Source: Escherichia coli | GTDB taxonomy: Bacteria; Pseudomonadota; Gammaproteobacteria; Enterobacterales; Enterobacteriaceae | Reading direction: 5' to 3' (one strand) | DNA: 64,000 nt | NCBI RefSeq assembly: GCF_013122565.1 | Contig: NZ_CP053258.1 | Shown here: piece after piece, positions 10,170 to 11,180 of the stretch | How the letters are laid out: every line of letters starts with the position of its first letter | How positions within the stretch are numbered: the first letter of the stretch is position 1 | Position numbers and translations under genes: made by a program | Notes under the pieces: generated by a model | What the model was told of the DNA's origin: nothing | The model's input: the letters and a program-made list of their open reading frames with translations, nothing else | The model's database searches: none

Positions 10170-10426
10170 AAGAGAACATCCCCTGAGAGTTTAATTTGCG
10201 TCAAGATGCGTGGCGGACAATCCCCTGCCAGCGAAACGTTATCTTCCTGCTCCAGGTTTGCGACAATTTGCTGCGTCGCAAAAAAGCAAACGTTTAGCTC
10301 CGCGCATACAAAACGGGTGGTAAAAAAAAGCAAACGATTATCCGGCGATCATAGCGGCTTTTTCAACCGAAGTTTGCTGCTTTTTTCTCTTTTATTGTCT
10401 TGACGATGAAAAACCAGGCAATTGAT

Positions 10427-10442
10427 GCGCAAACGTTATCGT
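10427..10442. promoter_or_regulatory. candidate PurR operator upstream of ghxP
   Basis: gcgcaaacgttatcgt matches the PurR box consensus acGCAAACGTTTgcgt at 13 of 16 positions; a second partial copy (gatgcgcaa...cgttatcg) follows at about 10444-10468. Confidence 0.35.
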
Positions 10443-10715
10443 CGATGCGCAAGATTGCAGCGTTATCGAGCCATATACCGTTCAGGATTGCGATAAAAAA
10501 TCGTCTGAGATGACAAAAATATTGCGGCTAAAAAGTATACTTTTACACTGGCGAAGAAACGCCGGTGACATACAATTAAAGCATCAACACCAACCGGAAC
10601 CTCCACCACGTGCTCGAATGAGGTGTGTTGACGTCGGGGGAAACCCTCCTGTGTACCAGCGGGATAGAGAGAAAGACAAAGACCGGAAAACAAACTAAAG
10701 CGCCCTTGTGGCGCT

Positions 10716-11180
10716 TTAGTTTTGTTCATCTTCCAGTAAGCGTGCGCCGGTACCTTCTTCTCCTAAGCGGTCGCCCGGGTTACGCAACGGGCAATCACTG
10801 CGCGAAAGGCAGCCACAACCAATACATCCGTCCAGTTCGTCACGCAGCGCCACTAAGGTATGAATGCGCCGATCCAACTCTTCTCGCCATTGGGACGAAA
10901 GCTGTTTCCACTCTTTCGCACTTAACGTATGCCCTTCGGGCAACACGCCAAACGCTTCACCAATGGTCGCCAGTGGAATGCCAATACGCTGAGCAATTTT
11001 GATAATTGCGACATATCGCAACACATCACGTTTATATCGTCGCTGATTGCCGCTATTACGGATACTGGTAATCAACCCTTTGCTTTCATAGAAATGCAGC
11101 GCCGATACCGCCACACCGCTGCGTTTCGCCACTTCGCCGGGGGTTAGCAGCGCTTTAATGCGGGGTAATTTCTTTTCCAT
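10716..11180 (-). CDS. soxR: redox-sensitive MerR-family activator SoxR
   Basis: 154 aa; C-terminal [12 protein letters not shown] 2Fe-2S cysteine cluster. Confidence 0.95.

Follow-up and report, generated by a model that had tools for sequence, protein, structure and literature searches.

Introduction

The intergenic region between ghxP (yjcD) and soxR of Escherichia coli measures 546 bp (positions 10170–10715, from the ORF coordinates) in the 64 kb stretch of DNA analysed here (the window), and the question that it raises is what this DNA is for. An initial annotation made from the sequence had put the spacer at about 550 bp, in good agreement with the measured length, and had judged it longer than the ghxP promoter needs; between 10330 and 10730 it had pointed out duplicated PurR-like motifs and a candidate small RNA ending at a GC-rich hairpin. 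The spacer houses both sraL and the PurR-controlled region of ghxP. It very probably comprises two independent, divergently transcribed units that have both been described before, namely the small RNA SraL/RyjA on the plus strand and PurR-controlled ghxP on the minus strand.

The original observation is thus correct, yet both of its features are already known, one as a characterized sRNA (SraL/RyjA, 2001) and the other as a published PurR site (ghxP, 2011), and in themselves they add nothing new. What is gained comes from comparison across genera: a corrected map of the control region (the true motif copy, the other boxes and the promoter) and an evolutionary account of the long spacer, which involves the absence of a glutathione S-transferase-like (GST-family) gene. 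Only a structured leader RNA of ghxP and a fixed arrangement of three PurR boxes, both at the edge of or outside 10330–10730, might be new.

Methods

The small RNA was identified by a scan against all Rfam families, in which sraL was the single strong match. A pattern derived from the sraL RNA core was used to collect 97 genomic loci from about 30 genera of Enterobacteriaceae. PurR boxes were scored with a position weight matrix (PWM) built from the 22 other published sites in the table of Cho 2011, the ghxP site being left out; the training sites score 15.5–25.3 bits. Both strands of the window (128 kb) were scanned with this matrix. Leader sequences of ghxP from 35 species were aligned with MAFFT, and the structure was derived with RNAalifold and by hand. 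A covariance model (R1) was built from the leader alignment and searched against 814 kb of sequence including the K-12 xanQ-guaD-ghxQ region.

Results and discussion

Layout and conservation of the locus

The features of the locus are listed in Table 1; the window is reversed in orientation with respect to the K-12 map. Of 5426 complete E. coli genomes, 5420 contain a 701 bp segment around the spacer, and the spacer region is identical to that of K-12 MG1655 at 692 of 700 positions. The order ghxP(−), sraL(+), soxR(−) is retained, with few exceptions, in those of the 97 loci whose flank is long enough. Two of the public records, labelled 'Bacillota bacterium' (L051) and 'Chryseobacterium sp.' (L067), carry typical Enterobacteriaceae ghxP-sraL-soxR loci, L051 being 100% identical to the window in both the GhxP N-terminus and SoxR; these records are likely to be contaminated or mislabelled.

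Table 1. Features of the ghxP-soxR region (window positions unless stated otherwise).
Feature	Positions	Strand	Remarks
ghxP (yjcD) CDS	8820–10169	minus	449-residue ORF; guanine/hypoxanthine transporter; annotated in E. coli genomes
ghxP Shine-Dalgarno sequence AGGGGA	10179–10184	minus	Within conserved block CAGGGGAUG
Structured ghxP 5' leader RNA	10194–10310	minus	Four helices, covariation; outside 10330–10730
Leader helix P1	10307–10301 with 10212–10206	minus	AUGCG.G with C.CGCAU
Leader helix P2	10298–10289 with 10240–10231	minus	O3 with the weak PurR-like sequence at 10230–10245
Leader hairpin P3	10282–10275 with 10264–10257	minus	UUUGCGAC with GUCGCAAA
Leader hairpin P4	10225–10221 with 10217–10213	minus	Short
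Weak fourth PurR-like sequence, AAGATAACGTTTCGCT	10230–10245	minus	5.1 bits; 3' strand of P2
Predicted PurR box O3, AGCTAAACGTTTGCTT	10284–10299	minus	17.5 bits; about +31 to +46 from the putative start
Predicted PurR box O2, GGATAATCGTTTGCTT	10328–10343	minus	12.2 bits; overlaps the ghxP −10 hexamer and putative start
Putative ghxP sigma-70 promoter	10337–10366	minus	−35 TTGAAA 10366–10361, 18 bp spacer, −10 GATAAT 10342–10337
PurR box O1, ACGATAACGTTTGCGC (plus strand GCGCAAACGTTATCGT)	10427–10442	minus	PWM 19.1 bits; site of Cho 2011
'Second copy', GATGCGCAA-gattgcag-CGTTATCG	10444–10468		Not a PurR box; TTGCGCA alone conserved
sraL promoter	10548–10576	plus	CTGGCGAA 10548–10555; −10 TACAAT 10571–10576, then TAA; conserved, 43 species
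sraL/ryjA sRNA, 141 nt	10583–10723	plus	Rfam RF01408 match; homologous to K-12 ryjA (b4459)
Hairpin common to sraL (+) and soxR (−)	10692–10722	both	Perfect 13 bp stem, core invariant in 43 species
soxR CDS	10716–11180	minus	154-residue ORF, annotated soxR; stop codon 10716–10718 within the hairpin
soxS	11266–11589	plus
GST-family gene	5327–5998 of locus L024		Lies in the interval from the ghxP promoter to sraL; counterpart in most loci outside Escherichia

Most genera have about 1100–1340 bp between sraL and the ghxP start, compared with about 420 bp here. The extra DNA is a gene for a 223-residue protein with GST_N and GST_C domains, which lies on the ghxP strand and ends just upstream of box O1. 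This gene is missing from Escherichia, from part of Citrobacter and from one of the two Trabulsiella loci. The length of the spacer in Escherichia is therefore put down to the absence of a gene that most genera carry between the ghxP promoter and sraL, an absence that has made the promoter region of ghxP and the promoter of sraL neighbours.

Within E. coli the stretch upstream of O1 (10460–10575) varies. The window and K-12 match E. whittamii almost base by base there, and E. coli locus L018 diverges strongly from the window (L035 was also compared); in this stretch only 937 of the 5420 E. coli genomes reach 99% identity to the window. There seem to be two haplotypes upstream of O1 in E. coli, possibly originating by recombination.

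The plus-strand unit is SraL/RyjA

The initial annotation had cited RyjA as reported from the soxR-yjcD interval of K-12, and the Rfam scan together with the K-12 annotation places it exactly there. The match to RF01408 (sraL) scores 153.3 bits (E = 3.4e-36), the gathering score being 39, and spans model positions 1–142 of 142. K-12 ryjA (4277926–4278066) maps to the same 141 nt, which are 100% identical in the window and K-12, and in both the last 8 nt overlap the 3' end of the convergent soxR gene. In a 43-species alignment 94% of the paired positions of the Rfam structure can pair, compared with 39–53% when the partners are slid, and the closing helix (helix 1) shows compensatory changes at four pairs. 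We found no difference between this locus and the SraL/RyjA of RF01408: the full-length match, the sequence, the position convergent with soxR, the terminator and the RpoS-type −10 element are all the same.

The sraL −10 element stands 6 nt before the annotated start and has the consensus TACACTTAA in the 43 species; TACAcTTAA is conserved, the window having TACAAT, and a conserved CTGGCrAA is found upstream of sraL in the same alignment. The RpoS-type feature visible in the sequence is the conserved −10 element TACAATTAA. In Salmonella, SraL has been reported to depend on RpoS, which was found at the promoter by ChIP, to accumulate in stationary phase, to repress tig (trigger factor) by pairing upstream of the Shine-Dalgarno sequence and to shield the rho leader against premature Rho-dependent termination. 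The functional data thus derive from Salmonella and are carried over by analogy to the E. coli-type sequence studied here. SraL is very probably transcribed on the plus strand from the RpoS-type promoter up to the hairpin and U-run that it has in common with soxR, and acts in trans through base pairing. As to the wording 'candidate small RNA', the small RNA stands, and 'candidate' gives way to a characterized, Hfq-binding and RpoS-dependent sRNA. ORFs of 62 and 88 residues that overlap sraL and an ORF of 26 codons within SraL were rejected as genes, their starts or frames not being conserved.

The GC-rich plus-strand hairpin reported to end just inside the 3' end of soxR is present, and the 8 bp noted for it are the core of a longer stem. 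Its arms (10692–10704 and 10710–10722) enclose the loop CTTGT and are followed by TGTT, giving the transcript a 3' U-run UUUUGUU, and the soxR stop codon falls in the right arm. The hairpin is the established terminator of sraL and is likely to be bidirectional: read on the reverse strand, it too gives a match (23.7 bits) to the terminator portion of the sraL model, and, as in other bidirectional intrinsic terminators, a GC-rich palindromic stem lies between an A-run and a U-run. It differs from these in having a stop codon, that of soxR, within the stem, so that the sraL and soxR transcripts are complementary over about 30 nt. The proposal that the hairpin forms the natural 3' end of a plus-strand transcript was therefore right. 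Since the 8 nt overlap is accounted for by a terminator shared between convergent genes, an antisense regulatory role on soxR need not be invoked. That the hairpin serves solely as the terminator of soxR, with nothing functional being transcribed on the plus strand, is a notion that its palindromic form and the GUUUUCC which follows it on the soxR strand would allow; it is virtually untenable in view of the full-length Rfam match, the conserved upstream promoter and the covarying helices, and it had already been refuted by the annotation of ryjA and by published evidence from a Northern blot on which SraL was detected, from start sites recorded in E. coli and Klebsiella pneumoniae and from RpoS ChIP.

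One copy of the repeated motifs is a PurR operator

Two words are repeated in the spacer, as had been stated: GATGCGCAA occurs at 10424–10432 and 10444–10452 and CGTTATCG at 10434–10441 and 10461–10468. Box O1 corresponds to the first copy of both words, which are joined there by a single A. Repetition as such carries little weight because exact 8-mer and 9-mer repeats are not rare in 546 bp; the spacer holds nine repeated pairs of 9-mers and 16 of 8-mers, compared with means of 1.5 and 4.8 in Markov simulations (p of about 0.01–0.02). As judged from the matrix, the first copy resembles a PurR site far more closely than chance would allow, O1 being the best PWM match in the whole window.

PurR control of ghxP, which had been suggested on the strength of these motifs, is documented in the literature. 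The ChIP-chip peak 'ryjA/yjcD' of Cho 2011 was assigned the motif ACGATAACGTTTGCGC, the reverse complement of 10427–10442, that is, O1. This peak was obtained with adenine only (log2 ratio 2.08) and covers the whole spacer, at a resolution that does not separate O1 from the boxes O2 and O3 described below. Furthermore, ghxP belongs to the PurR-1 iModulon and its PurR-dependent repression by adenine has been published.

The claim that the motifs are duplicated PurR-like sites holds for the first copy and fails for the second as an operator. That both copies form tandem operators might be read from the exact repetition of both halves and from the heptamer TTGCGCA of the second copy (minus strand, 10452–10446), which is invariant in 27 sequences and recurs 20 bp downstream, in O1. 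In the second copy, however, an extra 8 bp separates the halves, so that no 16 bp palindrome surrounds a central CG, and nowhere in this copy does the PWM score reach 2 bits in the scan of both strands of the window. In addition, neither another E. coli lineage (L018) nor other genera have the CGTTATCG half, and the K-12 version of the 9-mer is GGTGCGCAA (8 of 9 positions identical). Tandem operators are therefore very unlikely, and O1 is taken as the sole operator of the repeated region. A semi-conserved ATGTTGC precedes the invariant heptamer, which might represent a half-site or bind another factor.

Because O1 is flanked by the two divergent units and precedes the sraL start by 148 bp, and because the label 'ryjA/yjcD' of the ChIP-chip peak might hint at sraL, PurR could be imagined to control sraL instead of, or besides, ghxP. 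We consider this extremely unlikely: most genera have the GST gene of about 670 bp between O1 and sraL, O1 keeps an exact distance of 99 bp to the box at the ghxP promoter, and sraL is under RpoS. O1 is accordingly assigned to ghxP.

Two further predicted PurR boxes at the ghxP promoter

The only promoter-like site found on the ghxP strand by a promoter scan is TTGAAA/GATAAT, both hexamers of which are invariant in 27 aligned sequences; a second promoter upstream of O1 was detected neither by eye nor by the scan. Transcription of ghxP would on this basis start near 10330. Operator positions are given relative to this predicted +1, since a mapped ghxP start site was found in neither the Kim 2012 nor the Ettwiller 2016 supplements. 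A run of eight T on the ghxP strand (10322–10329; seven in K-12) lies at the predicted start. Such a run recalls the UTP-sensitive reiterative transcription at upp and codBA; it is not conserved in Enterobacter, Atlantibacter and Buttiauxella.

PurR-like boxes had been reported for 10330–10730. O1 lies within this interval; of the other conserved boxes, O2 (10328–10343) straddles its edge and O3 (10284–10299) falls outside it. With the leave-one-out matrix O1 is followed in the 128 kb scanned by O3 in second and O2 in fourth place. The third-ranked match (TTGAAGACGTTTGCGT, 4908–4923, 13.5 bits) falls within the coding sequence of actP (3746–5395, plus strand); it was rejected as a PurR site and is probably due to chance. 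The fourth PurR-like sequence of the ghxP region is probably not an operator either because of its low score and because it pairs and covaries with O3 in the leader RNA.

All 74 loci with a ghxP start, from 20-odd genera, contain O1 and O3, and in 73 of them O2 scores at least 10 bits, being degenerate in Shimwellia. In O2 the portion GATAATCG is invariant in 27 of 27 aligned sequences, while the remaining right half, TTTGC, is found in 26 of the 27, Shimwellia having CTGGC. The centres of O1 and O2 are 99 bp apart in every one of the 74 loci, whereas those of O2 and O3 are 43–206 bp apart; the sequence between O1 and O2 is poorly conserved. PurR, a dimer, is not known to loop DNA. The conservation of the two downstream boxes has to be read with care: the O2 score is below the training range (12 versus at least 15.5 bits), and the conservation of O2 is due in part to the −10 hexamer and that of O3 in part to the RNA helix P2, of which it also forms the 5' strand.

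Compared with operators of the pur regulon (a 16 bp palindrome, ACGCAAACGTTTGCGT), O1 is the published site, and O2 and O3 conform to the matrix built from the other sites; their location, on the promoter or immediately downstream, is also that of the boxes at other pur genes. The ghxP region differs in having three boxes rather than one and in the location of O1 far upstream (about −104), 99 bp from O2. Both purR and purA are known to have more than one PurR site. O1 is the sole PurR site of ghxP printed in the searchable literature, in which neither O2 and O3 nor a three-box arrangement at ghxP were found. PurR with hypoxanthine or guanine as corepressor represses the ghxP promoter. With O1 about 104 bp upstream of the predicted start, O2 and O3, if they are PurR boxes as predicted, would do the actual blocking: at O2, over the −10 hexamer and start, PurR would occlude RNA polymerase, and at O3, in the early transcribed region, it would act as a roadblock.

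A structured leader RNA upstream of ghxP

Downstream of the promoter, the ghxP 5' leader contains four helices (P1–P4; Table 1), which RNAalifold recovered de novo without guidance and which also appear in the minimum free-energy (MFE) fold of the window sequence. The adjoining Shine-Dalgarno block TCAGGGGA is identical in 34 of the 35 aligned species, Trabulsiella having TTAGGGGA. When the leaders were aligned by sequence only, 91.5% of the cells were paired, compared with 35–50% when slid; 12 pairs had changes on both sides, a number matched by 1 of 500 shuffles, and the covariation score was 0.248 versus 0.152. In alignment A4, which is biased in favour of the structure, covariation is seen at 16 of 30 pairs, and none of 500 shuffles reached any of the five measures. 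Model R1 matched every locus exactly once, upstream of ghxP in each case, and nothing else in the 814 kb searched; there was no match at the paralogue ghxQ, which lies inside the xanQ-guaD-ghxQ operon. The leader is conserved in every ghxP-flanked Enterobacteriaceae locus examined.

P2 is formed by O3 and a PurR-like sequence, and the structure might accordingly be a mere side effect of palindromic PurR boxes clustered in the DNA. The MFE of the sense strand, which is no more stable than that of shuffled sequences (z = −0.3 to −0.8), agrees with such an origin, and the case for an RNA therefore rests on covariation. P1, P3 and P4, however, are not PurR boxes and yet bear most of the compensatory changes. 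Moreover, G-U cells outnumber A-C cells by 81 to 12 and 91.5% of cells are paired in the sense compared with 84.2% in the antisense direction, which points to an RNA on the ghxP sense strand. We consider a side effect of the boxes unlikely and, from the covariation, regard the RNA structure as real.

Possible nature and significance of the leader

With riboswitches the leader has in common a conserved, covariation-supported secondary structure in a 5' UTR, but it is not a member of any riboswitch class described in Rfam or in the literature searched. A search of the minus strand against all Rfam families returned no match to the leader at E values up to 1, and no leader RNA or riboswitch of its own was found described for ghxP/yjcD in the searchable literature. 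Like the three-way junctions of the purine riboswitch type (RF00167), it is a multi-helix 5' UTR element of about 115 nt that precedes a gene for a purine transporter, and, as in three-way-junction aptamers, its stems covary and nucleotides of its junctions and loops are conserved; in contrast to RF00167-type aptamers it matches no Rfam family and has no recognisable expression platform, so the likeness is one of general architecture only. None of the helices is followed by a U-run, and the MFE fold shows no pairing between the Shine-Dalgarno sequence and the structured part. In most genera the P3 loop reads CCCCU, which is complementary to the Shine-Dalgarno sequence; that of the window, GCAGCAAAUU, is not complementary.

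The leader also carries conserved GGA motifs (ACA(R)GGA-like), and ghxP was listed as affected by CsrA by Potts 2017, without a CLIP-seq peak. A leader bound by CsrA was considered and set aside: the GGA motifs are present, but ghxP has no CLIP peak and no paper linking CsrA and the leader was found. A possible upstream ORF in the leader and the AUG inside GGGGAUG were likewise rejected, start codons or frames not being conserved.

Tentatively, the leader of about 115 nt may be an undescribed cis-regulatory RNA, either riboswitch-like or protein-binding, which would place ghxP under layered purine control at the levels of DNA and RNA; from the comparative evidence we hold this to be a possibility that falls somewhat short of probable. 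P2 would then be built from the very sequence that serves in the DNA as the predicted operator O3. The leader shows strong covariation in a closely studied bacterial family and is nevertheless absent from Rfam, which makes it a lead worth following. Should it prove to bind a regulator or to sense a purine metabolite, the pur regulon would gain a new post-transcriptional layer.
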